A DNA stretch of 64,000 nt from a virus (taxonomy: Duplodnaviria > Heunggongvirae > Uroviricota > Caudoviricetes): the IMG/VR virus record IMGVR_UViG_3300045988_147305. The stretch is one strand, 5' to 3'. The notes under the pieces are model-generated. The model had not been told where the DNA came from. It ran no database searches and saw only the letters and a list, made by a program, of their open reading frames with translations. Both the position numbers and the translations under genes were made by a program. Below are positions 9,454-57,991 of the stretch, in pieces (within the stretch, counting starts at the first letter, position 1; each line of letters begins with the position of its first letter).

Positions 9454-10044
<591 letters not shown>

Positions 10045-10075
10045 TTAACCGATTCTACGAGTAGTCATTTGTTCA
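10045..10075 (-). promoter_or_regulatory. Candidate Lpa-dependent late promoter
   Basis: Minus-strand sequence AACAAATGACTACTCGTAGAATC about 30 nt upstream of the ATG; almost the same 18-mer recurs at 42614-42640. Confidence 0.45.
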
Positions 10076-10171
10076 TTGAGTAGGAATATTGTTGTCTGGG
10101 GGGTAATCAGTGTAGGTGGAATGAGGGATATGATATGGTTATCACATAATCAGGTTGTTTTGAGTAAAACA

Positions 10172-10201
10172 ATAAAACGCCCTTTAATGGGCGTTTTTTT
10201 A
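10172..10201. terminator. Bidirectional rho-independent terminator
   Basis: Hairpin AACGCCCTTTAATGGGCGTT flanked by A-run and T-run. Confidence 0.6.
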
Positions 10202-10228
10202 AACTTAAATTGACTATCCTTTCAAATA

Positions 10229-11008
10229 CTATTTTAATTCTATGTAATTTTTAAATTCTCCCTCATATTTATACATGATGCTATCAAATCCTTCCATTAC
10301 ATCAACGAATTGTTGTGAACATTCCGGCTTCCAAGGCGTACACTTACGAACCATATCCATTTTTTTCTTATCCTTCGTTGTATCGACTAAGGATAGGTAC
10401 CCTATAAAATTCATCATCTGAACAGGATCTTGATTTGTGAATATATATTTGACGTTTTGCTTAGTAGGCGAAAAAGAATCAAAAGCAGGGAACATATATT
10501 CACCAGAAAAAGAGAGTGCAGCATCAATGACGTCTGTTGCAGGAGTGCAGTTGCTCAGAATTGGCACTAAGCTAAAATTAGCACCGGAGCACACTGCATA
10601 TATATCATCCCCTTTTTTTAGTTTTAACAGAGAGTCTTGCTTTGAATCCAATATTTTCAATTTGATATAATTTAGTGGCGTTGCATTTTCCCCTGGAGTA
10701 AATAATTCTACAATTGGTTTATTATTCACCATTCTTATGGATTTTATTTCACCATACACAATTGGAATTGTGTTCCATTTTTCCTGAGCAGCAAATTCAT
10801 TATCTTTAAAATCATTAACCAACTCAGATGGCAAATGATAACCAAATTGATTGTTCATTGCTTTCGAAGCAAATCCAGACAAATAGAATGCCCTTACTAA
10901 ATCATAATCTTTCTTTGAGGTAGAAAGCCAATCTGGCAATTTATTATCAGCTATCGCGCTTCCAGCAAAAATAGCACAACAAAATGTTATTACATTAAAT
11001 AATTTCAT
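10229..11008 (-). CDS. SimC-like secreted protein (superimmunity locus)
   Basis: Predicted signal peptide MKLFNVITFCCAIFAGSAIA; AT-rich gene between the late operon and the immunity region, where P1 carries simABC. Confidence 0.5.
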   Translation of the reverse strand: MKLFNVITFCCAIFAGSAIADNKLPDWLSTSKKDYDLVRAFYLSGFASKAMNNQFGYHLPSELVNDFKDNEFAAQEKWNTIPIVYGEIKSIRMVNNKPIVELFTPGENATPLNYIKLKILDSKQDSLLKLKKGDDIYAVCSGANFSLVPILSNCTPATDVIDAALSFSGEYMFPAFDSFSPTKQNVKYIFTNQDPVQMMNFIGYLSLVDTTKDKKKMDMVRKCTPWKPECSQQFVDVMEGFDSIMYKYEGEFKNYIELK

Positions 11009-11015
11009 TTTCCAT

Positions 11016-11333
11016 TCACTCATTAATCGGTTTAAACTCACTAATTAATTCACCAAGACTATTTGGGTATGCTTTATAAATAACATACTCCGAAGAGCCA
11101 TCTGAATATTGGTAAACCCCATAACAGACCAGTTTATTTATTCCTTTCTGAATAGTTTTTTGATTATAAGAATCAACCACTGTTATTCCATATGACGATA
11201 ATATTTCGTTATATTCTTCAATAAGAGCTTTTCTTGTTTCCACTGAATTGCAATCTACCTTCGAAAAGTCAACTTCATCAGCAAAAACATTAAATGTTAA
11301 AAAGGAAAGCACTAAAAACAAACGAATCAGCAT
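11016..11333 (-). CDS. Small secreted protein (sim locus)
   Basis: Signal peptide MLIRLFLVLSFLTFNVFA; AT-rich. Confidence 0.45.
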   Translation of the reverse strand: MLIRLFLVLSFLTFNVFADEVDFSKVDCNSVETRKALIEEYNEILSSYGITVVDSYNQKTIQKGINKLVCYGVYQYSDGSSEYVIYKAYPNSLGELISEFKPINE

Positions 11334-11344
11334 AAATCCACTCC

Positions 11345-11476
11345 TACGCATGGATTAATAGTCATTGATCGCAAAGGCGTAAACGTGCCCAAGGTATTTC
11401 GTATAATCGGTACAAATCTCCTTTACGCTTGATGCTGCATTAACAGTCCCAGCCATAAATAATAACGGTAGTAATA
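11345..11476 (-). CDS. 43-aa secreted peptide (sim locus, candidate simA)
   Basis: Hand-translated MRKLLLPLLFMAGTVNAASSVKEICTDYTKYLGHVYAFAINDY with RBS AGGTGAGG; below the ORF-track size cutoff. Confidence 0.35.
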
Positions 11477-11582
11477 GTTTTCTCATTATAACCTCACCTG
11501 CCTTATAACTCATTTAGGGTACATATTTTCGCCTTTAAAAAAAAGAGGTTATTAGATCCAACTGTGTATTTATTAAACAAAT

Positions 11583-11599
11583 AATGCTCTAATAAATTT
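11583..11599 (+). promoter_or_regulatory. C1 repressor operator (Op51-like)
   Basis: AATGCTCTAATAAATTT matches the P1 C1 operator consensus. Confidence 0.7.
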
Positions 11600-11774
11600 G
11601 TATTTTTAAGTCGCGAATGCTATCTTTTCGCATCATATTGACCTTTTAATCGTTCAGGCTTATAGTTCCACCGTCGTAGCAAATTCTGCGACCGGGTTTG
11701 ACAGCCTGAATGTTAGTGCGGACAACCGCAGATTTCCGATATTGCGGTATTTTTGTGTCCGTAAACCGCGTTAC

Positions 11775-11860
11775 GCCCGAATTATGGTGGGGCGTGATGG
11801 GGAGGCTTCGGCCTGCTGGTTTCACTAACGCCAGTCTGTCAACCCTGTCACGTCCTGCCA
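11775..11860 (+). ncRNA. c4-like antisense immunity RNA (approximate bounds)
   Basis: CACTAAC...CTGTCAACCC (11825-11845) is complementary to the direct-repeat targets GTTTGACAGC/GTTAGTG at 11693-11715 and 11861-11895, the latter just upstream of the icd RBS. Confidence 0.4.
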
Positions 11861-11912
11861 CCTGTTTGACAGCGGGTAGCAGGTTGTTAAACCTGTTAGT
11901 GAGGCCGTAACT

Positions 11913-12134
11913 ATGGTTAATGCCAATCCTTGCACACGCCCAGAATTCATCTGGCGTTTCTATTCCTGTAAAAAACACCACTATCACTTCGTTATCGCAG
12001 CAACTGAAGACGAAGCACGCTCTCAATTGCCTGATGGCCCCTGCATTTTTACTGCCCGTTTTTCTACTAACTCGCGCAATTCACTTAGTTACTGGAACCT
12101 CCCCTTCTCTGCCGACGTTCAGGGGGGTTTATGA
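11913..12134 (+). CDS. icd: Icd-like cell division inhibitor
   Basis: 73-aa ORF overlapping the start of ant, downstream of the c4 element. Confidence 0.6.
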   Translation: MVNANPCTRPEFIWRFYSCKKHHYHFVIAATEDEARSQLPDGPCIFTARFSTNSRNSLSYWNLPFSADVQGGL

Positions 12135-47918: not shown

Positions 47919-48425
47919 TTGAGTATTTTCAATAAACACGCACACCAGGAACGTCCGTACATCGTCATAGTAGATATTGATGGGACGATATCAGAGGCAA
48001 CGGAAGACAGGCTGCATTTACTTCCACCACCTGGCAAAGGTGCATTAACAGAGCACTGGAACGAGTTTAACCTTGCCTGTGACACTGATGCTCCCATCAC
48101 TCCAGTTATTGATATGGTGCGCCAGTTGTCCGGCATTTACACCCTCTGGTTTGTAACCGGGCGCTGTGAGATAGCCAGGGATAAAACACGAGCCTGGTTG
48201 CGTAAGCACGTAACAAATGGGGCGGAGCCTTTGCTATCTATGCGTCCTGCCACCGATGACAGAAATGACGGTCCAGCAAAGATTGATCTCCTGAAGAAAA
48301 TTGGTCTAAGTAAAATTGCGTTCGCGCTGGAAGATAAGATTGAAGTGGCGCGTGTTTTCAGGAGTCACGGCGTACTTACGTTAATGGTCAGGGAGTATGA
48401 AAACGCGCTTCTCCATCAACAATAA
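47919..48425 (+). CDS. HAD-superfamily phosphatase-like protein
   Basis: N-terminal DIDGT motif; 168 aa. Confidence 0.5.
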   Translation: MSIFNKHAHQERPYIVIVDIDGTISEATEDRLHLLPPPGKGALTEHWNEFNLACDTDAPITPVIDMVRQLSGIYTLWFVTGRCEIARDKTRAWLRKHVTNGAEPLLSMRPATDDRNDGPAKIDLLKKIGLSKIAFALEDKIEVARVFRSHGVLTLMVREYENALLHQQ

Positions 48426-48441
48426 TTGCTCTAATAAATCT
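48425..48441 (+). promoter_or_regulatory. C1 operator
   Basis: ATTGCTCTAATAAATCT. Confidence 0.65.
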
Positions 48442-48619
48442 TGATTTTTAAAACAGAGAAAGTGAAAATAAAAACATGCCGTAAGGCGCGGCATGTATCC
48501 AATCAATCACAGGAGCTGAAAATATGAACACGGCATTCAAAATCATTATGGCCGCGATCTATTTCTGGCTGTTCTCTATCACTTTTGGCGGCATCGTCGC
48601 ACATGGGTAAGGGGGATGC

Positions 48620-49327
48620 ATGAAAGGCGAAGTGAAAGAGCGCGGCATGATTTTCAACGATGAGATGGTCCGGGCCATCCTCGAAGGAAGGAAAACGCAG
48701 ACGCGGCGGATAATGAAAAATCAGCCTGCGGAAGTTGGTCCAGAAGCACCAGTGATGGTTAGAAAAATTGGTGCAGGTTTTCAGTGGTACGGGGCTGATG
48801 GTGTAAGCAGTGTTTTCAATTGCCCATTTGGTATCGTCGGCGATCGAATTTGGGTTCGTGAAACATGGGCGATATTAGGCAATGAGGATGGTTGCAGTGT
48901 GGACTGGAACGACAACCTTTGTCGTGGCGATGAGAAGAACGCAGCAAGGATTTATCGGGCCAGTTGCGAGCAAAAACCTGGTGATTACGGCTTATGGTCG
49001 ATACCCGATGATGCCGACTGGAAACCTCACACTGTGAATGAAAAGTTTGATGGTGGGTGGCGTCCATCAATTCACATGCCGCGATGGGCATCACGCATTC
49101 TGTTGGAAATTACCAACGTGCGCGTTGAACGGTTGAACGATATCAGCGAATGCGATGCAAGGGCTGAGGGCGTTCCGCCTGCTGGAAGTTTGCTTCCTGA
49201 TCACCCGGGAACATTCCTTACTCCCAAGGGGGATTTCGCAATGGCCAAGGTTGCGTTCCAGCGCCTGTGGGAATCCATCTATGGTGAAGAAAGCTGGAAC
49301 GCTAATCCCTGGGTGTGGGTACCGTGA
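48620..49327 (+). CDS. ASCH/PUA-like domain phage protein
   Basis: N-terminal MIFNDEMVRAILEGRKTQTRR ... GDRIWVRETW ... EITNVRVERL, a pattern common in prophage ASCH-like proteins. Confidence 0.45.
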   Translation: MKGEVKERGMIFNDEMVRAILEGRKTQTRRIMKNQPAEVGPEAPVMVRKIGAGFQWYGADGVSSVFNCPFGIVGDRIWVRETWAILGNEDGCSVDWNDNLCRGDEKNAARIYRASCEQKPGDYGLWSIPDDADWKPHTVNEKFDGGWRPSIHMPRWASRILLEITNVRVERLNDISECDARAEGVPPAGSLLPDHPGTFLTPKGDFAMAKVAFQRLWESIYGEESWNANPWVWVP

Positions 49328-49497
49328 TCACCAAAGATGGCCCGAAGGTAAAAAAACTGCACCAAACAGAGCGGATGTGGGTCGTTGGCAAAAACGAGTT
49401 TTACCACAAAGAAACTGGACGCCGCCATTTTGCAGAAAATACGCGCCGCCGACTGCTGTTAGACACCATCAAGCCTATCGAGGTGAAGCATGTTTAA
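49315..49497 (+). CDS. Small hypothetical protein
   Basis: 60-aa ORF; weak. Confidence 0.3.
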   Translation: MGTVITKDGPKVKKLHQTERMWVVGKNEFYHKETGRRHFAENTRRRLLLDTIKPIEVKHV

Positions 49498-49729
49498 ACA
49501 GAACGAAAAAGCTATCGCTCAAATTGCTGATTATATCCCGCGTGCGTGCCGGGGTATGCAGTTGCAGGAAGCCAAAGCGCGCCTGGAGAAAAAAATTGCG
49601 CTCTATATTGATGACGGCTGTGATTCCGCCGTTCTTAACGCGGCGTTCGCACCAGCTCTTAACTGTCACACTCGGGAGTCTTTTTTTTCGTGCATCGCAG
49701 CGCAACTCCGCCAAGGAGGCAACCAGTGA
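49490..49729 (+). CDS. Small hypothetical protein
   Basis: 79 aa; ends in the shared junction GGAGGCAACCAGTGAG. Confidence 0.35.
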   Translation: MFKQNEKAIAQIADYIPRACRGMQLQEAKARLEKKIALYIDDGCDSAVLNAAFAPALNCHTRESFFSCIAAQLRQGGNQ

Positions 49730-49744
49730 GTAACCGTTTTTACA

Positions 49745-50370
49745 TGATGTGCTTGCGTGAAACTGTGGGTAATAACGCCTCATTCCATTGCCATAACGGC
49801 AATGGTTACAGTTCTGATATCGATCGCGCTCATGTTTACACGCTGGAAGAAGCCCAAAAAGCCTGGAATTGTGGGCGAGATATCGATCAGCCTGTTTGTG
49901 CCGATAGTGTGGATGCAATGGCTGTGTGGCACGTTGATTGCCAGTACATCCCTACAGAAAGCCTGATTGAGTCAGATTGCACTGCGTATGTGGCCTACAA
50001 AAAAGGTAGCTGGAACGGCAACGATGTTTACTGGCTTCAACACGGTGGATTGCCAACAGATGACTTCAGTAAAGCGACCATCTTTAGCGTCGCCAACAAA
50101 AACGAACCAGGAATAGTTTGGTTGCCATTTTCCATTGCTGATGCAGCAAAGCGCCGGACGTTCAATATCAATAAATTTAACCGCAGAACAATGGTTCAGG
50201 GCGCAGGTTTGGTCATGCCTGACTGGTTGAAAAAGCAGAACAGAAGAAAGAAGTCGCGAAGCGGGAAGGTGCGTTGGAATTGTCCGCATTGCGGAAAAAT
50301 CACCTGGCAGTACAGCCCATATGATTTTGAAGGCTGTCGTGATTACAACTGTGAAGGATGGCGAGAATGA
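49745..50370 (+). CDS. Hypothetical protein with C-terminal zinc ribbon
   Basis: WNCPHCGK ... CRDYNCEGW motif. Confidence 0.4.
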
Positions 50371-51089
50371 CAATTGACTATCAGGTACTGCGTGAGGCGG
50401 CAGAAAAGGCAACACCAGACGAATGGGTCGCATTTATTTCGCCGGGTACTGGTACATATGCGGTGCATACACCCGGTGATAAACGATGTGGAGACGTTAT
50501 CAAATGGCCCGGCTTTGATGGACAGGAAAACGCAGAGAATAACGCTCGTTATGTTGCCGCGTTCAACCCAAAGGTTGCACTGGAGCTGCTTGGTGAAATT
50601 AAGCGCCTGGAGGACACAAATATTGATGCTATGTGTCGAATTGCAGAGCTTGAGACTAATCTCGCGGCGCTGGTGGCGGAGAATGCGGGGCTTAAGGCCT
50701 TCAAAACCGCCGTTTATCAGCAGATGGGCGTCGGATGTGATGCTCCTGAATTCTCCATTACGGTAGGTTTGAGTAACTTACGTCGTTTTGCTGACACACT
50801 CCACGCCATTGAGCGTGAGTTCTTTACCAAAGAGCTACCTGATGAAGAGCACGAAGGCGAAACATTCAATGAATGTCCACTTAGCTGGGGAATGAGCGTC
50901 GAACAGTACGTTTCCGAGTTTCGCAAATGCCTGGCTGAAGTGCGGGCGCAGGGATTGGAGATGTTTGCACAGAAATGTAACTCAAAATCCGAACAGTCAT
51001 TTGCATCTGATATACGCGATAACTGGAAACTACTCGGTGAACATGCCACTGACTTTGCCGCAGAGCTTCGAAAAGGAGGCAACCAGTGA
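50358..51089 (+). CDS. Ead/Ea22-like protein, paralog 1
   Basis: N-terminal IDYQVLREAAEKATPDEW and coiled-coil middle typical of lambdoid Ea22-like proteins. Confidence 0.5.
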   Translation: MARMTIDYQVLREAAEKATPDEWVAFISPGTGTYAVHTPGDKRCGDVIKWPGFDGQENAENNARYVAAFNPKVALELLGEIKRLEDTNIDAMCRIAELETNLAALVAENAGLKAFKTAVYQQMGVGCDAPEFSITVGLSNLRRFADTLHAIEREFFTKELPDEEHEGETFNECPLSWGMSVEQYVSEFRKCLAEVRAQGLEMFAQKCNSKSEQSFASDIRDNWKLLGEHATDFAAELRKGGNQ

Positions 51090-51838
51090 GCAAGATTGAC
51101 TATCAGGCACTGCGTGAGGCGGCAGAGCGTGCAATTCCGGCAATGGAACGCCTGTTAATGTTGCCAGTTGATGATGATCTGATAAGTGAACAGGAACTTA
51201 AAGATTACGGCGTGGATATTGATGCGCTCAACGCCTTCAAATTTCTGACCGGACCAGAAACCGTGCTGGCGCTGCTGGATGAACGGGAAAGAAACCAGCA
51301 ATACATAAAACGCCGCGATCAGGAGAACGAGGATATTGCGCTAACGGTAGGGAAGCTGAGAGTTGAGCTTGAGGAAGTAAAACAACACGCTGAAGAATTA
51401 TCCGAAACCAAGGCTGTTCGTAACCAATGGCGGCCAGATATTTGCCCAATAACCGGACGTGCATTTTTCATGTGGATTGAGCATCCAACATTGGGAAATG
51501 TGCCGACATATGGTGGCCCATTAGATAGTTACACCATTCCAACAAAGGACGGTGACGGTGAGTTTTCATGTGAGCGTTACGATCATGATTTTGGCGGTTG
51601 GGTAGAAAGCGAATGTCTTGGGGTATATCTGATTGATGATAGAGAACAATGCAGGGTCTACGAACTGGAGGAACGCGTTAAGGAACTGGATGCTCGGGAA
51701 ATATCGCTCCCGGAACGTAGCAGCATGCTTCATCGAACAGATTTTCACGATGATTACCAAACGGTAATGGCATACAAAGTTTCTGAAGTCATCGCTGCAA
51801 TCCGCGCCGCAGGCATTCGCATCAAAGGAGGTGAGTAA
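51086..51838 (+). CDS. Ead/Ea22-like protein, paralog 2
   Basis: N-terminal KIDYQALREAAERA, paralogous to the upstream gene. Confidence 0.5.
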   Translation: MSKIDYQALREAAERAIPAMERLLMLPVDDDLISEQELKDYGVDIDALNAFKFLTGPETVLALLDERERNQQYIKRRDQENEDIALTVGKLRVELEEVKQHAEELSETKAVRNQWRPDICPITGRAFFMWIEHPTLGNVPTYGGPLDSYTIPTKDGDGEFSCERYDHDFGGWVESECLGVYLIDDREQCRVYELEERVKELDAREISLPERSSMLHRTDFHDDYQTVMAYKVSEVIAAIRAAGIRIKGGE

Positions 51839-52184
51839 TGCGTGTGGCATGTATCGGCTTGTTACCGTACCCGACTCGTTTTTGGGCTTCTGCGCTAATT
51901 GCGAAGCCGTATGTCCTGATGGCTGACAACATCATCCCGGCACCAAAGCGCCGCCATACCGGTATTGCAGCGGCACGACGAGCAGCAAAGAGACGCAGGA
52001 GAGCAAAGCGATGAAAAACCGTAAGGCAAAACGACTTTTTTTTACAGCGACCTGTGCGTGTGGTGGAGCTGGTTATTAGCAACCATAAGATAGCGGTACT
52101 CCATCCATTTGGTCAGGTGGCTTTTGCCGCAAAGCGTAAGCCTACTGCGTCACAGAACAGGCGGAAGAAAGGGTACGCTGTAAG

Positions 52185-52373
52185 ATGAAAAACCGTAAAG
52201 CAAAGATTCTGTTAGTTCGTAGAAACGCTCCTGGCGTCTGGCAGTGGGTGAGACTCAGCAACCGACGGATGGGGTTGATGAAATATTACGGGATGATGGA
52301 TTGTGGTTTTTGCAAAAAGCCCAGCGCGGCGCAAAACCGCTGGAAAAACCACTTGCGCACTAAAGGAGAGTGA
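52185..52373 (+). CDS. Small basic protein
   Basis: 62-aa ORF; a truncated duplicate of its first codons lies at 52012. Confidence 0.3.
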   Translation: MKNRKAKILLVRRNAPGVWQWVRLSNRRMGLMKYYGMMDCGFCKKPSAAQNRWKNHLRTKGE

Positions 52374-52377
52374 TATG

Positions 52378-52890
52378 GCGTTAACACACCGCGAACTCTG
52401 TCAGATTGCGTACAAGTTCCTTAAGCGCAACGGGTTCAAGGTTTGTTTTCATGACCGCTTTATAGCTGTAACCAGTACCGGAGAACAGCCAGATGCTATG
52501 GGATTCAGAAATTCAGCATCATGCCTGATAGAGGCGAAGTGTTCTCGTGCTGACTTGTTGGCAGATAGAAAAAAGCGTTTTCGTAAAAATCCGTCTCTTG
52601 GAATGGGCGACTGGCGATTCTTTATTAGTGAGCCGGGAATTATTTCAATTGAGGATTTACCACCTGGCTGGGGATTACTTCACGTTGTTAACGGAAGAGT
52701 ACGGAAAGTACATGGGTGGCCCAAGGGTAATTGCTGTTGGGGTAATCCTGACGATAAGCCATTTACTGGAAATAAGCAGGTTGAATGCGATTACATGTTA
52801 TCTGCATTAAGGCGCATGGAGTTGAGAGGGCACCTTAATGAAATATATGACGGTGTAATTGTTAATAAGAAAGAAGGAAACGCGGCATGA
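52378..52890 (+). CDS. PD-(D/E)xK nuclease-like protein (MmcB-like)
   Basis: QPDAMGF ... LIEAKCSRADL motif arrangement. Confidence 0.45.
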   Translation, partial: ALTHRELCQIAYKFLKRNGFKVCFHDRFIAVTSTGEQPDAMGFRNSASCLIEAKCSRADLLADRKKRFRKNPSLGMGDWRFFISEPGIISIEDLPPGWGLLHVVNGRVRKVHGWPKGNCCWGNPDDKPFTGNKQVECDYMLSALRRMELRGHLNEIYDGVIVNKKEGNAA

Positions 52891-53351
52891 CCACTATTAC
52901 CAATAAGAAACAGTATCCCAGCGAGCAATATCTTAATGAGCTGATCACCAACATAGAGTTTGCCGCAAGGGCACCAGTTGAAGTCGTGAGAGCAATGGCA
53001 GCAGAGCTACAGAAGCGGCGCGAAGCTGATAGTGCAGAACCAGTTGCTTATATTTTCAAACATCCGGCCGGGAAATTATTCTGGGCTTTAACGGATGAAA
53101 GCAATAAAGAGCAAGCGGACGTTATTCCTGTTTATGCTGCCGCGCCTGCGTCGGTTGTGCCGGATAATGCATCAGAGCCTCTTGCTTATGCTTACAAAGA
53201 GCTTACGCCTGAGATTATGCGCAACCATTTAGCTGTATTCGAGCGATATGGAATAGCCCCAAACGATAGCACTACCACAATTCAGGCACTGCGAATCGCG
53301 CTGGATGGTATAGAGCGGAGCGACGCCATGCTTCAGGGTAAAGGAGGGTGA
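52887..53351 (+). CDS. Hypothetical protein
   Basis: 154 aa; shares the N-terminus MTTIT with the gene at 53559. Confidence 0.4.
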   Translation: MTTITNKKQYPSEQYLNELITNIEFAARAPVEVVRAMAAELQKRREADSAEPVAYIFKHPAGKLFWALTDESNKEQADVIPVYAAAPASVVPDNASEPLAYAYKELTPEIMRNHLAVFERYGIAPNDSTTTIQALRIALDGIERSDAMLQGKGG

Positions 53352-53352
53352 T

Positions 53353-53562
53353 ATGGCTATTGCCGCAAGTTACACAATGCATCTCTATTGTGATTGCCTC
53401 CAGTGTACAGATGGCAAATATAAGTCGCCAGACTTCGGTGAGTATATCGGTACGTCATGGTCTGGTTGTGCAAAAGAGGCCCGTAAAGACGGGTGGCGAA
53501 TAAGCGCCGACAAAACACGTGCTTTTGCGCCCGGGCATAAAGTTTTGAGGATTAACAAATGA
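53353..53562 (+). CDS. Small Cys-rich protein
   Basis: 69 aa with CDCLQC...C. Confidence 0.35.
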   Translation: MAIAASYTMHLYCDCLQCTDGKYKSPDFGEYIGTSWSGCAKEARKDGWRISADKTRAFAPGHKVLRINK

Positions 53563-54167
53563 CCACTATTACCAGAGAACAAACTCTGAAAATTATTGAG
53601 GCAGCCGATGAGGTTATTAGTGCGCTTGCCGGAACTAACGAGGATGTTCACCCTGGTAGCGATAACATGCTACGCCTGTGGGATGACCTGAATGACCGTT
53701 ACGCGCCCCCGGAAGTAGTGCGTGAGCTGGCACGAATTGTGCTGGCATCGCTGGAAGCCGAACCTGTAAGCCAAACTTACAACTTGCCAGAATTAATCGA
53801 GGGCATGGAAGTTTCCATTGATGTAAGCACTTGTGATGCTGATTTAGGTAATCGCTATTTCGGCACCGTCACCGAGGCGTCAGAACTTGATACTGCCAAG
53901 AATGGTTACATCCTCCTGGTTCAGGACGCAGAGCCAAACTTCGATGTAAATGGCAACTCTCCGGTAACTCCGGATAGTTGGATAAGCTGTAGTGAGCGAA
54001 TGCCCGCTCAAGATGATTGGATTTTAATTTATTCAAAGCACGGCGAGTATATGGCAGGCCAGGTGCAAGGGGAATACGTGGAGTTGAGCGACGGCACTTT
54101 ATCGTGGTTAGGGAACGCCTTGTTCTGGATGCCGCTACCAGAACCGCCGCAGGAGGTGAATCAATGA
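53559..54167 (+). CDS. DUF551-like domain protein
   Basis: C-terminal WISCSERMP...DWILIY...WMPLPEPP pattern. Confidence 0.45.
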   Translation: MTTITREQTLKIIEAADEVISALAGTNEDVHPGSDNMLRLWDDLNDRYAPPEVVRELARIVLASLEAEPVSQTYNLPELIEGMEVSIDVSTCDADLGNRYFGTVTEASELDTAKNGYILLVQDAEPNFDVNGNSPVTPDSWISCSERMPAQDDWILIYSKHGEYMAGQVQGEYVELSDGTLSWLGNALFWMPLPEPPQEVNQ

Positions 54168-54249
54168 GCTGGCCTGAAGCATTCACCACGGTAGGAATTG
54201 TGATGGCGGCAGCACTGGGTTTGTATTCAATTTGTCGCTGGTGGTAACG

Positions 54250-54483
54250 ATGGGAAAAATAACTTTTGTAGTCGAATTTGAGGATGGCAAAGAGCCACCT
54301 GTTAGCGCCAATCTTGATGTTGCTGGTGGCAGGCTTGTTTCGGTTCTATTTGGTGACTACCGAGATGACTTCTTCCAACCAGAAGAAGTTGATGTAGTGC
54401 GAGAGGCATTAAACGAGTTAAGTGTTGATAACGATGATGCTCATGCGGAAATCATCCAAAAAATGGAACTGCTAACTCACTAA
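54250..54483 (+). CDS. Small strongly acidic protein
   Basis: About 77 aa with roughly 19 Asp/Glu and 6 basic residues. Confidence 0.4.
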   Translation: MGKITFVVEFEDGKEPPVSANLDVAGGRLVSVLFGDYRDDFFQPEEVDVVREALNELSVDNDDAHAEIIQKMELLTH

Positions 54484-54531
54484 ATTATCAATTATGGTGC
54501 TATCACCTACGACACCGAGAGAAAATTTATA

Positions 54532-54654
54532 ATGTCAAAAGTAAATGTTTTGATTTTTTCAGCAATTGTTGGCTTTGGTTTTACTGCCGGAGTGCAGATT
54601 TATATTACGTGGGAAAAAATCATCAACTACGCATGGAGTTGTTTTATTAAGTGA
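54532..54654 (+). CDS. 40-aa hydrophobic peptide
   Basis: Hand-translated MSKVNVLIFSAIVGFGFTAGVQIYITWEKIINYAWSCFIK; below the ORF-track cutoff. Confidence 0.3.
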   Translation: MSKVNVLIFSAIVGFGFTAGVQIYITWEKIINYAWSCFIK

Positions 54655-54661
54655 GGTAAGT

Positions 54662-54955
54662 ATGTGGAGAGGTAATAGTCATGGCAAAAGCCAGATGATA
54701 CTTACCGAATATCAGTTTGACCATAAAACCAATAAATCACGTTCAGTATATTTGCTTCGGCACAATAGCCGCGTAATGAATACCGTGCTGGAGCAAAATC
54801 TGACTGTTGAAATAGATAGTTACGGGGGCTTCAAGCCAACAATTTCGCTTGATGATTTTCCTCGTGGTTTAAGCGAAAGAGAAGCAATGCTGAAATTAGC
54901 AGAATGGCTACAAAGATTAAGCATTGCTATTGAAGATAACTGGTCTGAACCTTAA
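54662..54955 (+). CDS. Small hypothetical protein
   Basis: About 98 aa from the internal Met of ORF 54566-54955. Confidence 0.35.
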   Translation: MWRGNSHGKSQMILTEYQFDHKTNKSRSVYLLRHNSRVMNTVLEQNLTVEIDSYGGFKPTISLDDFPRGLSEREAMLKLAEWLQRLSIAIEDNWSEP

Positions 54956-54961
54956 ATTTAT

Positions 54962-55336
54962 ATGATGACACTAAAACATTTTCTTGACCGCCCATTATGG
55001 GCGGCAGCCGCAGGCTATGACTTTAATTATATGGATTGCATGTCTTATACCGCCAATGCATACGACTATTCCTTCAGTCTGCTGCTTAATTCTTTAAGAA
55101 TATTGCCGCAAACAGAAGTTGGAGAGCTTCATTTATGGCTATTGGGCTTTATCGCGGCTGGAGTTGGTATTGCTGTATGGCCTTTTATTTTCTGGCTGGT
55201 GGCTGTTGTAGTGTGGTTTAAGTGCAAGACGTACCGGAGAAAGTATTTCTTAGGTGATGGAATGACTGATATTGCCAAAATGAACATTGAAAAATGGACT
55301 AAGGAATGTGAAAAGAAATGGCGCAAAAAGAAATGA
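54962..55336 (+). CDS. Small membrane protein
   Basis: 124 aa with a hydrophobic segment GFIAAGVGIAVWPFIFWLVAVVVWF. Confidence 0.4.
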   Translation: MMTLKHFLDRPLWAAAAGYDFNYMDCMSYTANAYDYSFSLLLNSLRILPQTEVGELHLWLLGFIAAGVGIAVWPFIFWLVAVVVWFKCKTYRRKYFLGDGMTDIAKMNIEKWTKECEKKWRKKK

Positions 55337-56226
55337 CCAGAATCACTGAAGAGCGTATATCAGAGATTATTTCCCGTATCGAAATGTATGGTCACGGTGC
55401 TGGATATACGGCAGATGAAGTATTGGCACTTGCCCAAATGGCTTTGGCGGCTTGCAAAGATGATAAAAAAATGAAGTTTATCGACTTGTTAGTGAAGGAA
55501 CTGCCTAAGTGCGGCGGGTGGCCTGATGGAATGAGTTATTGTTACCTACCCAGTGTCAATTTAATGGCACCATGCGCGACTTTTGCTTTTGGCTCAGACC
55601 ACAAAAAAGACACTTTCTTTGGGCGCAATTTTTGTTGTGAGATTGAGCTTCCAATTGGTGACCTTGATAGCGATGAATACCAGTCAGTTGTCACTCGCGA
55701 ACAATACGAATCAGCTCTCATAGCGTCGCAGAAAGTCGAGTTCAATGGTGATGAACTTGAAAGTAAGACTTACAGGTTGGATTTTGGGCAATGGCTGGAA
55801 CAGCAACGCGGGAAAATCGATGTGGACTGTGGTTGTGTGTCCACTGAAACATTCATGCACTGGCTGCGGGTAGCTTACGAGGCTGGCAACTATCCGGATA
55901 TTCCGGATAGTTCGGTGCCAGCACCAGGAAAGGGCGTCACCGGTGAACGTATCCGAATTAAGCCGCATGTTTATCGCGAACTGGTTAACCGTCTCCACGA
56001 TACAGCGATCAAGTGTGCTGGCACCCAGCAATTACGAGAAAGAATTAGCCGTGTTTTGGGCGACGTTATTACACCAGATCATCATAAACAAGCCGAGAAA
56101 AGCGGTCTGGAAAGGAGTCATCTTGAAGCGGCATTAAACATTAAACCGGGGCATACGCTAGGTGTCATTGATGCCATGTTGGTTCATGAAATGGCTAAGG
56201 CGTTATTGCCACTGGAGGCTGATTAA
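55333..56226 (+). CDS. Hypothetical protein
   Basis: About 300 aa; start uncertain (ORF-track start 55318). Confidence 0.4.
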   Translation: MTRITEERISEIISRIEMYGHGAGYTADEVLALAQMALAACKDDKKMKFIDLLVKELPKCGGWPDGMSYCYLPSVNLMAPCATFAFGSDHKKDTFFGRNFCCEIELPIGDLDSDEYQSVVTREQYESALIASQKVEFNGDELESKTYRLDFGQWLEQQRGKIDVDCGCVSTETFMHWLRVAYEAGNYPDIPDSSVPAPGKGVTGERIRIKPHVYRELVNRLHDTAIKCAGTQQLRERISRVLGDVITPDHHKQAEKSGLERSHLEAALNIKPGHTLGVIDAMLVHEMAKALLPLEAD

Positions 56227-56289
56227 ATTCCGGATAAAGCTGATATCTGATCACCATGCTAAAATCCCCTCAATTCACAGAGGGGATTT

Positions 56290-56562
56290 TTGTATATGTT
56301 GCGTAGATTTTTAGGTAAAAGCGTTATTGTCGGTGCGATGTTGGCTATGTCTGGGTGTGCTATGGTGCAATACAATGACGGAGAAAAGGTTAGCATCCAG
56401 TCAGATGGTTGGTATGGCCTGGATAGCCTGCAAAAAACAGCGGATAAAGCCTGCCAGCAATACGGAAAGTCTAAAGCCGTATATCAGCATAGCGCGAACG
56501 CTAACCCTCATCTTGCGCCCGGTTCGGGTGTTCAGAATACCATCTGGAAATGTGAGCCTTAA
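56290..56562 (+). CDS. Small lipoprotein
   Basis: Signal peptide with lipobox LAMSGC. Confidence 0.45.
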
Positions 56563-56564
56563 AC

Positions 56565-56813
56565 ATGAGCGACTGGAATATTGCAGCCAAAAGTCAGGAA
56601 GAACGGGATAAGGTTAACGTAGATCTGGCTGCCAGCGGTGTGGCGTACAAAGAGCGATTGAACATACCAGTCATAGCGGAACAGGTGGCCAGGGAACAAC
56701 CTGAGCACTTGCGTGCATGTTTCATGGAAAGACTACGTTATTACCGCGAGCAGAGCGTGAAACTACCAAAAGGAAGTGATCCGGTATATCAAAAGGCAGA
56801 TCCACAAAAATAA
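56565..56813 (+). CDS. hot: Hot, homologue of DNA polymerase III theta subunit
   Basis: [36 protein letters not shown] closely matches E. coli HolE as recalled. Confidence 0.8.
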
Positions 56814-56890
56814 GCCTTTTCAATAAGCTATATCACCACCAGCTAAAAAATACATTCTGACTTGCATGAAATGCGCCCTTTAGCGATATA

Positions 56891-56906
56891 CTGTATATAA
56901 ACACAG
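56891..56906 (+). promoter_or_regulatory. LexA (SOS) box
   Basis: CTGTATATAAACACAG, a perfect CTGT-N8-ACAG, 18 nt upstream of humD. Confidence 0.8.
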
Positions 56907-56924
56907 TATTTAGGAGGGCGTATA

Positions 56925-57317
56925 ATGGGATTCCCATCACCAGCAGCCGATTTTGCTGAAAGCAGAATTTCGCTTGACGCACAATTCATCAAACGACCAA
57001 CCGCAACATATTTCATGCGGGCCGCCTGCTCACATCTCCGTGAGGGGATTTTGCAAGGTGCAATGCTGGTGGTTGATTCATCTCTTCCACCACTGGATGG
57101 TTCTCTACTCATATGTGCCGTAGAGGGAGAATTTCGCGTAAAGCGATACCGCAAGCATCCTCGCCCACACCTTGAGGATCTGGAAAGCGGAAGACGTGAG
57201 TCACTGCCAGATGATGATGACAGCAGCTATTCCGGGAGTCAGGCCATATTCGGGGTAATCACATACATCATTAACGATGCCAGGAGTGGGGAATTTGATG
57301 ATTGCCCGGTGATTTAA
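56925..57317 (+). CDS. humD: UmuD'-like protein HumD
   Basis: 130 aa, S24 peptidase/UmuD-like C-terminal domain lacking the N-terminal cleavage segment; LexA box upstream. Confidence 0.8.
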   Translation: MGFPSPAADFAESRISLDAQFIKRPTATYFMRAACSHLREGILQGAMLVVDSSLPPLDGSLLICAVEGEFRVKRYRKHPRPHLEDLESGRRESLPDDDDSSYSGSQAIFGVITYIINDARSGEFDDCPVI

Positions 57318-57389
57318 GCTGCAAAGAGCTGGTGCTTTATGCTTGTGAAGTTTATACTTGTGTACACATAACGAGTACACGAGGTGTTT

Positions 57390-57611
57390 ATGCAATCCAT
57401 TAACTTCCGTACCGCGCGTGGCAACCTTTCTGAAGTGCTCAACAATGTTGAAGCCGGGGAAGAGGTTGAAATCACCCGCAGAGGCCGTGAGCCAGCAGTA
57501 ATTGTCAGCAAGGCTACTTTCGAAGCCTACAAAAAAGCGGCGCTGGATGCTGAATTTGCATCCCTGTTTGACACCCTGGACTCCACCAACAAGGAACTGG
57601 TTAACCGATAA
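57390..57611 (+). CDS. phd: Phd antitoxin
   Basis: [39 protein letters not shown] recalled as P1 Phd; ORF-track start at GTG 57384. Confidence 0.9.
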
Positions 57612-57991
57612 TGAGGCATATATCACCGGAAGAACTTATTGCGCTTCATGATGCGAATATAAGCCGCTACGGCGGCCTGCCGGGAATGTCTGATCCGGGT
57701 AGGGCAGAGGCCATTATCGGGAGAGTTCAGGCCAGAGTTGCCTACGAAGAGATCACCGACCTTTTCGAAGTCTCCGCCACCTACCTGGTGGCTACAGCGA
57801 GAGGGCATATATTCAATGATGCCAATAAGCGTACCGCGCTAAACAGCGCGCTGCTATTTCTACGCCGTAACGGGGTGCAGGTATTTGATTCACCTGAACT
57901 GGCAGACCTTACTGTAGGGGCTGCGACTGGCGAGATATCTGTATCTTCTGTCGCCGACACGTTACGTAGATTGTATGGTTCTGCGGAGTAG
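57611..57991 (+). CDS. doc: Doc toxin (Fic-family kinase)
   Basis: 126 aa; [13 protein letters not shown] Fic-like motif; overlaps the phd stop. Confidence 0.9.

Follow-up and report, generated by a model that had tools for sequence, protein, structure and literature searches.

The locus considered here raises the question of whether three small, adjacent, AT-rich genes constitute a self-contained cassette or are simply neighbors with separate histories. A first-pass annotation of the 64-kb stretch of DNA that was analyzed (hereafter, the window) had described these genes, encoding a hydrophobic peptide, a soluble protein, and a membrane protein, as a compact unit with lower GC than their surroundings, and had suggested a horizontally acquired moron, for example a superinfection exclusion gene, an abortive infection (Abi) toxin, or a toxin-immunity pair.

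Gene content, base composition, and genomic setting of the trio

All three genes are encoded on the plus strand. ORF1 (54532-54654) specifies a 40-aa hydrophobic peptide with a single span, ORF2 (54662-54955) a soluble protein that serves here as the anchor gene of the trio, and ORF3 (54962-55336) a 124-aa membrane protein. The genes are separated by gaps of just 7 nt (ORF1-ORF2) and 6 nt (ORF2-ORF3), while the last 19 nt of ORF3 also belong to the next gene. The make-up given in the first-pass annotation is therefore borne out, except that its soluble protein of ~98 aa is exactly 97 aa in length, and the membrane status of ORF1 and ORF3 is a prediction. Each of the three proteins matches a PHROG family from end to end, namely phrog_5525 for ORF1 (E 1e-24), phrog_1258 for ORF2 (1e-48), and phrog_2638 for ORF3 (1e-62), all of which are families of unknown function. 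Diverged homologs of equal length also exist in unrelated phages for each ORF, the pN/pS ratio among P1-like copies is ~0.3-0.45, and the frames are unbroken in all copies examined. Because of the full-length PHROG matches, the same-length diverged homologs, and the pN/pS values, all three ORFs are judged to be real genes, rather than chance frames.

The lower GC content of the trio was likewise confirmed by a sliding-window check, as its 805 bp have 38.9% GC and the window as a whole averages 47.5%, with an sd of 3.4% among stretches of that size. This corresponds to a z value of about -2.5, or the 2.2nd percentile of 805-bp windows. Individually, ORF1, ORF2, and ORF3 have 33.3, 39.9, and 40.9% GC, none of which exceeds the 2nd percentile among 59 long ORFs, and their codon-position composition is deviant as well, with GC3 values of 35, 35, and 43% versus 48.6 ± 5.5%. 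The hydrophobic and lysine-rich make-up of the ORF1 and ORF3 proteins accounts for some of the AT bias of these two genes. The low-GC patch (~54.15-55.5 kb) is slightly wider than the trio and takes in an acidic gene upstream. A patch of still lower GC is located elsewhere in the window (9626-12006, down to 31.8%), and the accessory array around the trio, taken as a whole, is not AT-rich at 47.3% GC.

The window itself is identifiable from its sequence as a P1-like phage-plasmid of the SJ46/vB_EcoM-813R1 type, because the neighbors of the trio include the theta-like Hot protein (56565-56813), HumD (56925-57317), and Phd/Doc (57384-57991), with Lpa farther along, and because a 1-kb stretch around the trio matches two Punavirus phages, Escherichia phage vB_EcoM-813R1 at 99.8% nucleotide identity and Salmonella phage SJ46 at 98.4%. 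PacA/PacB and C1 are also found farther along, and 3.1 kb around the trio are essentially identical to the Klebsiella pneumoniae plasmid pCRKP-59-KPC, an IncF/IncY cointegrate. The trio lies between pap and hot in a variable region of P1-like elements, and its slot corresponds to variable region 8 of P1-like phage-plasmids, which extends from pmgT to humD (PMC9603915); in the discussion of that study, low G+C is also connected with the variable regions (PMC9603915). Upstream of the trio are a DUF551/phrog_60 gene (53559-54167, plus strand) and the gene for the acidic protein mentioned above (54250-54483, plus strand; 77 aa, pI 4.2, phrog_3876), which is within the same low-GC patch as the trio and travels with ORF1 in SJ46-type elements. 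Downstream, the gene overlapping the end of ORF3 (55318-56226, plus strand) encodes a modular 302-aa protein of phrog_60/phrog_21459 and is a paralogue of the DUF551 gene, with which it has in common a 29-nt repeat and a similar start. Compared to P1, the slot from pap to hot/humD is the same, as is the C1 operator directly after pap, whereas the gene content is wholly different: where P1 has pmgT, pmgU, and pmgV, the window has Ead/Ea22-like, DUF551, and Eaa-like genes as well as further small genes, among them the trio. No match to the P1 reference record NC_005856 was obtained with the region in a nucleotide search or with the three ORFs in protein searches, and the sole records named P1 among the matches of these searches were P1-like isolates. 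The DNA of the trio is already public and catalogued, always annotated as hypothetical, and the region has already been described as variable. No literature was found for the PHROG ids or accessions of the trio, and the region receives no mention in a P1vir transcriptome paper.

Separate distributions of the three families

Among the plasmids in PLSDB, 310 carry ORF2 and 221 of these (~70%) carry the whole trio, defined as ≥80% query coverage, whereas other arrangements were read from evenly sampled rows. Within P1-like plasmids, these arrangements consist of ORF1+2+3, ORF2+3 (query positions 173-853), ORF1+2, and ORF2 alone, with the latter comprising roughly 17% of the ORF2-bearing P1-like plasmids. 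In some of the inspected P1-like plasmids, ORF1 is replaced by an ASCH-domain gene or ORF3 by small two-span or signal-peptide genes, while in pESA118_2 ORF2 and ORF3 are split by an additional gene for a 54-aa membrane protein. No ORF3 without ORF2 was found among the sampled P1-like plasmids, and many P1-like plasmids are without one or more of the three ORFs. The similarity blocks (54656-55337 and 54656-54943/54955) start at the ribosome-binding site of ORF2 and end at the stop codon of either ORF2 or ORF3, limits that are classical mosaic junctions at gene borders. Matches were also present in 309 of 5,426 complete E. coli genomes, almost all of them on plasmids of ~90-100 kb, and the copies of the trio are 96-100% identical. 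The trio would seem to be common through one frequent lineage with parts that are separable, and common descent would explain its frequency equally well.

Outside of the P1-like elements, the three families diverge further in their contexts. Homologs of ORF1 were detected in the epsilon15-like phages EC.W1-9 and phiv142-3, where they have the same length of 40 aa, 50-53% identity, and a conserved core (GFG..AG....YI.W) and are located after an Eaa/Ea22 gene and before terS, with neither ORF2 nor ORF3 present. The gene downstream of these homologs was considered as a possible relative of ORF2 and was rejected, as there is no resemblance. A closer copy of ORF1 (75% identity) is found on an E. 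albertii plasmid. The hydrophobic span of ORF1 covers residues 7-25 (KD19 maximum 1.83).

The ORF2 family is considerably broader, with 128 clusters across Enterobacterales, all named hypothetical, whose hosts include Escherichia, Klebsiella, Salmonella, Citrobacter, Erwinia, and Pantoea. ORF2 has no hydrophobic span (GRAVY -0.65) and is preceded by a Shine-Dalgarno sequence, GAGG, 5 nt upstream. Some gene callers instead begin ORF2 at an upstream TTG to yield a 129-aa protein, which is unsupported, given that the homologs start with MWRG. An AF2 model (pLDDT 80.7) predicts an antiparallel sheet of four strands and, after it, a long helix at the C-terminus. The best conserved part of the family is a C-terminal loop and helix motif, DFPxGLSxRExMLKLAxWLxRLxxxIEDNW, with R73, E74, W82, E91, D92, and W94 as invariant residues, and its invariance suggests a conserved binding surface. 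The model had no significant structural neighbor in the PDB or BFVD beyond its own family, and a PDB profile search with the ORF2 alignment returned nothing meaningful. Full-length homologs with 55-66% identity are encoded by N15 (gp44) and phiKO2 (gp43). In phiKO2, the gene immediately follows one for a Dam methylase, and neither ORF1 nor ORF3 was found in N15 or phiKO2 in 5-kb stretches or in whole-record searches. In mEp235 and the P22-like phage SPN9CC, a homolog is flanked by ninF and an HNH gene, and in Salmonella phage 29485 one is flanked by two EaD genes. Prophages of Erwinia, Symbiopectobacterium, and Citrobacter carry homologs in their nin or early-left regions. A 125-aa protein encoded upstream of the Symbiopectobacterium homolog was evaluated as a potential member of the ORF3 family and was rejected, being HNH-like instead.

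The ORF3 family, by comparison, is small, as 1.84 billion proteins yielded 35 representatives at 50% identity, all of about 105-130 aa. Its members exhibit an N-terminal KHFxDxPxxAxxxGYxFxxxDC motif, an acidic EVRELP segment, a hydrophobic stretch that has a Pro at its center, and a basic tail. In ORF3, the hydrophobic stretch comprises ~30 residues (~57-86; KD19 maximum 2.38) between an acidic N-terminal part (3 K/R versus 6 D/E) and a basic C-terminal tail (14 K/R versus 5 D/E), from which the positive-inside rule would place the N-terminus outside and the basic tail in the cytoplasm. The AF2 model of ORF3 is poor (pLDDT 64), nothing meaningful was returned by a PDB profile search with the ORF3 alignment, and a Pfam scan of 26 family members yielded noise only. 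A holin function likewise found no match in Pfam, and ORF3 matches phrog_20 (holin) at E 0.088 only, with no stretch above threshold, and its neighbors are ea/DUF551-type genes, not lysis genes. Homologs of ORF3 with 41-56% identity occur without ORF2 in the 8-kb loci of N15-like contigs, in which the gene order is Q, RdgC, an RNase_T-type exonuclease, a small gene, ORF3, Dam, and DinI, as well as in Yersinia phage P840, where the ORF3 context was taken from a 5.3-kb stretch and a search for ORF2 across the whole phage had no match anywhere at E ≤ 1e-3. In Proteus phage RS10pmA, both the ORF2 and ORF3 families are present within the replication module, ~6 kb apart and on opposite strands. No Shine-Dalgarno sequence is visible upstream of ORF3, and because its homologs overlap whichever gene precedes them, translational coupling looks like a property of ORF3 itself, rather than evidence for a partnership with ORF2.

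From these comparisons, the trio is best described as three families with separate distributions and not as a conserved unit. Since this separation exists both inside and outside of P1-like elements, it argues against an obligate toxin-immunity or toxin-antitoxin pair. The proposal of a compact functional unit consequently fared poorly, given the occurrence of ORF2 without ORF3, of ORF3 without ORF2, and of the gene inserted between them in pESA118_2.

Transcriptional context and the C1 operator

The trio is embedded in a tightly packed, co-directional array of plus-strand genes (~48525-56226, ~7.7 kb) comprised of Ead/Ea22-like, DUF551, Eaa-like, and other small genes, with a gap of ~0.5 kb at 51838-52303. 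Directly after the pap-like gene, at the head of this array, is a promoter-like site with a C1 operator (48397-48441, plus strand). The operator, ATTGCTCTAATAAATCT, has one mismatch and is located at 48425-48441, where it overlaps the -10 element of the promoter-like site (48397-48426), which places a 17-bp C1 operator over the promoter of a candidate early operon. In the whole window, the P1 C1-operator consensus has 11 matches versus 0.25 expected. The position of the operator after pap is kept in RCS47, SJ46, and two other P1-like plasmids, and the P1 record NC_005856 is annotated at the same position with a 'C1-controlled operator OpmgT; former Op88' and predicted promoters P1/P2pmgT. The first strong intrinsic-terminator-like hairpin downstream (56261-56290, plus strand) has 11 pairs and a T-rich tail and is the predicted end of the array.

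Between these points, simple consensus scans identified no plus-strand promoter-like or terminator-like site from 53054 to 56161 and no strong plus-strand terminator-like site from 48.5 to 56.26 kb; two weak stems of 5-6 pairs with no clear T run are present at 50802-50817 and 56161-56175. The promoter scan returned 5 sites versus 10.3 in shuffled sequence, and these include two weak minus-strand sites (9/12 positions) at 54723-54695 and 54687-54659. A loose regex for P1 late-promoter boxes, the consensus of which is uncertain, had no match near the trio. From the position of the trio in a co-directional array with a C1 operator at its head, we infer that C1 keeps the array, including the trio, repressed in the lysogen and that its expression sets in early once this repression is lifted. 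Several sigma-70 promoters are predicted inside the equivalent region of the P1 record, and internal promoters missed by a simple scan could allow some expression of the trio in the lysogen.

The array has much in common with the ea (b2/exo-xis side) and nin regions of lambdoid phages, where small early genes are likewise densely packed in one direction and the borders of the mosaic coincide with gene boundaries. ORF2 homologs are found inside nin regions themselves (ninF-X-HNH-rusA), and the ea regions are represented by the ORF2 homolog between EaD genes and by the ORF1 homologs that follow Eaa/Ea22 genes. As expected for genes from such an ea/nin pool, the homologs are located in nin or ea regions, or in equivalent early operons, of temperate phages of enterobacteria, and the exchanged blocks end where genes end. 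Unlike the lambdoid regions, the trio resides on a plasmid prophage of the P1 type, where a C1 operator would take the place of lambda N/Q antitermination, and its proteins include none of the named nin or ea proteins. N15 gp44 and phiKO2 gp43 provide a further parallel, as they are encoded in a co-directional early operon of linear plasmid-prophages, although their neighbors differ and include a Dam methylase and a DnaQ-like exonuclease. The occurrence of homologs in nin/ea regions or alongside exonuclease, Dam, or replication modules points to an early-lytic accessory role for these families, rather than to lysogenic conversion.

Rival readings and the most probable role of the trio

Under the Juhala/Hendrix definition, morons have a deviant composition, their own promoter and factor-independent terminator, and expression from the prophage. 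The trio resembles both morons in the HK97/lambda sense and exclusion genes, such as P1 sim, P22 sieA/sieB, T4 imm/sp, and cor/llp, in its deviant composition, small predicted membrane proteins, and variable presence, and small membrane proteins are frequent among the known exclusion factors. A prophage-expressed, self-contained moron whose membrane proteins confer superinfection exclusion or abortive infection could account for the local low GC, the two predicted membrane proteins, and the presence/absence polymorphism among related P1-like elements. We nevertheless consider it improbable. The trio is flanked by no promoter-like or terminator-like site of its own, it is embedded in an array with a conserved C1 operator at its head, and its homologs reside in early-lytic, replication, nin, or ea modules, including the replication module of a Proteus phage. 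Moreover, a prophage could exert exclusion or Abi only through genes that are active in the lysogen, and the predicted repression runs counter to this. The trio is also without a sequence relationship to sim, sieA/sieB, imm/sp, or cor/llp. Searches of Pfam, NCBIfam, PADLOC, Rfam, and PDB yielded no match for the trio, the lone match in the flanks being the DUF551 gene upstream. PADLOC had 0 families at E ≤ 1 for the three ORFs and four of their neighbors, Pfam defense and exclusion families (SieB, Imm, Cor, and similar) yielded sub-threshold noise only, and no toxin, antitoxin, or immunity domain was identified at permissive E-values in Pfam, NCBIfam, or PADLOC, nor by PDB sequence. The moron proposal accordingly holds in part, in that the genes are accessory, horizontally shuffled, and deviant in GC, but not with regard to transcriptional autonomy, given the C1-headed array, while its extension to superinfection exclusion or Abi found no known exclusion, defense, holin, or toxin family to support it.

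A functional pair consisting of ORF2 as a soluble regulator or neutralizer and ORF3 as a membrane effector (toxin-immunity or effector-chaperone), with ORF1 optional, is an unlikely reading as well, even though several observations are consistent with it: the 6-nt gap and missing Shine-Dalgarno sequence ahead of ORF3, an ORF2+ORF3 block with identical borders in both SJ46-type and RCS47-type backbones, the lack of ORF3 without ORF2 among the sampled P1-like plasmids, and the presence of both families in the same Proteus phage genomes and beside Dam genes in N15-like elements. These are countered by the solitary ORF2 genes of P1-like plasmids, N15, phiKO2, and lambdoid and P22-like phages, by ORF3 without ORF2 in the N15-like loci and Yersinia phage P840, by the unrelated gene splitting the two in pESA118_2, by their distance and opposite orientation in RS10pmA, and by the indiscriminate overlap of ORF3 homologs with preceding genes. 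A related version, to which we assign a small probability, is that ORF2 and ORF3, with or without ORF1, comprise an unrecognised early-lytic membrane module having ORF2 as its soluble partner. If this were true, the small membrane protein could, for example, anchor phage DNA metabolism at the membrane or regulate it, or could counteract a host defense associated with the membrane, and such a module would explain why ORF3 homologs are found beside exonuclease, Dam, and replication genes in N15-like elements and Proteus phages. For ORF1, its 40 aa and single hydrophobic span recall type I toxin-like or lysis-modulating peptides of the Hok, Ldr, or Ibs style under antisense RNA control, and transcripts from the two minus-strand sites described above would be antisense to the 3' end of ORF1. 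This is very improbable, as these sites match just 9/12 positions in a scan that fell below the shuffled sequence, an Rfam scan of 53000-57500 had no match at E ≤ 1, and a Pfam search with ORF1 returned no toxin family, its sole match being 60KD_IMP at E 0.12. The epsilon15-like homologs are also overlapped by a downstream gene on the sense strand, which is a different context, and ORF1 does not appear to belong with the Hok/Gef, Ldr, Ibs, TisB, or ShoB toxins. Least probable of all is that one or more of the ORFs, especially ORF1, are chance frames in an AT-rich spacer; ORF1 is admittedly very short with a weak Shine-Dalgarno sequence, and the gene table of a near-identical Klebsiella plasmid, which is incomplete, lists no gene at its position, but ORF1 has a full-length PHROG match, homologs of equal length with ~50% identity and a common core in unrelated phages, and an intact frame in every copy examined.

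The reading that we favor, and which seems to us reasonably though by no means overwhelmingly probable, is that the trio consists of three ea/nin-type accessory genes, dispensable and independent of one another, that were juxtaposed by mosaic recombination and are C1-controlled and early-lytic. In such a scenario, recombination would have set three unrelated genes side by side in the variable region between pap and hot, where they would most likely be cotranscribed within the ~7.7-kb array from the promoter at the C1 operator to the terminator at 56261-56290. The trio would then be silent in the lysogen and produced early after infection or induction. ORF1 and ORF3 would presumably insert into the inner membrane, while ORF2 would remain cytoplasmic and probably act via its invariant C-terminal amphipathic helix, and each protein would have a separate target, in the host or the phage, through which it serves host takeover, DNA metabolism, or counter-defense. 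Those genes from pap to humD that were tested in P1 are nonessential by CRISPRi (PMC10695390), and by analogy with these nonessential P1 genes of the same slot, the trio may likewise be dispensable for lytic growth.

Given its widespread occurrence in Enterobacterales prophages and its invariant C-terminal helix, ORF2 is a reasonable, low-cost candidate for phage accessory-gene screens. More generally, local AT-richness and small membrane proteins do not by themselves indicate a moron or a toxin-immunity unit. At this locus, the AT-rich patch would instead mark the mosaic exchange of single genes among P1-like, N15-like, lambdoid, and epsilon15-like phages.

Genes bordering the three-gene cassette

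ORF1 (54532-54654), the first gene of the low-GC trio, is directly preceded by a gene encoding a strongly acidic 77-aa protein of family phrog_3876 (54250-54483; pI 4.2, with 18 D/E versus 6 K/R residues), and both genes lie in one low-GC patch. Among small acidic proteins made early, some function as DNA mimics or in anti-restriction. On a larger scale, the trio is bracketed by modular paralogues of the phrog_60/DUF551 type (53559-54167 and 55318-56226), which share a 29-nt repeat with 86% identity (53951-53979/55884-55912) and resemble each other in their start regions (repeat pair 53554-53572/55328-55346). These repeats could act as homology patches through which the genes lying between the two paralogues are exchanged. 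Further downstream, a strong terminator hairpin (56261-56290) runs directly into the 5' end of a 90-aa ORF located just upstream of hot (56290-56562; phrog_7757). This ORF contains a lipobox-like LAMSGC motif and may encode a lipoprotein.

Corresponding loci in other elements

In other P1-like plasmids, the slot 3' of ORF2 (54662-54955) is occupied by different small genes, which encode two-span membrane peptides of 58 aa (locus L010, 2972-3148) and 54 aa (L011, 2972-3136) and a 69-aa protein whose N-terminus resembles a signal peptide (L013, 2825-3034). The slot seems to favor small envelope proteins. N15-like contigs and Yersinia phage P840 both encode, next to the ORF3 (54962-55336) homologue and Dam, a conserved protein of ~80 aa with the motif GGDGFI...FDVGL..(R/Q)AIRR (L015, 3765-4007; L005, 2857-3105), which is found upstream in the N15-like contigs and downstream in P840. 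The P840 annotation of the ORF3 homologue as a 'conotoxin' looks like an artefact. The K. pneumoniae plasmid pCRKP-59-KPC (NZ_KX928752.1; 217 kb) is essentially identical to the window over 3.1 kb (53500-56600). This plasmid is typed as IncFIA/FIB/FII plus IncY and is apparently a cointegrate, from a patient isolate, of the P1-like element with a conjugative plasmid. Its name suggests that it carries KPC.

Lowest-GC stretch and predicted C1 operators

The GC minimum of the window is found at 9626-12006, where values fall to 31.8% in 805-bp windows, and this stretch is far more deviant than the trio region. It also includes one of 11 matches to the P1 C1-operator consensus that were detected in the window at ≤3 mismatches (11583, 13253, 28704, 32226/32237, 42660, 46284/46333, 48425, 59248, and 63522), compared with 0.25 expected by chance. 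One pair of matches is upstream of the pmgR/pmgS homologues and another match is upstream of lpa. The first ORF past the operator at 48425 encodes a very hydrophobic 28-aa peptide (MNTAFKIIMAAIYFWLFSITFGGIVAHG; 48525-48611), and the equivalent position in Salmonella phage SJ46 is annotated as 'membrane protein'. Small membrane peptides recur along the entire length of the variable array. Together, these 11 consensus matches map the predicted C1 regulon of the element.
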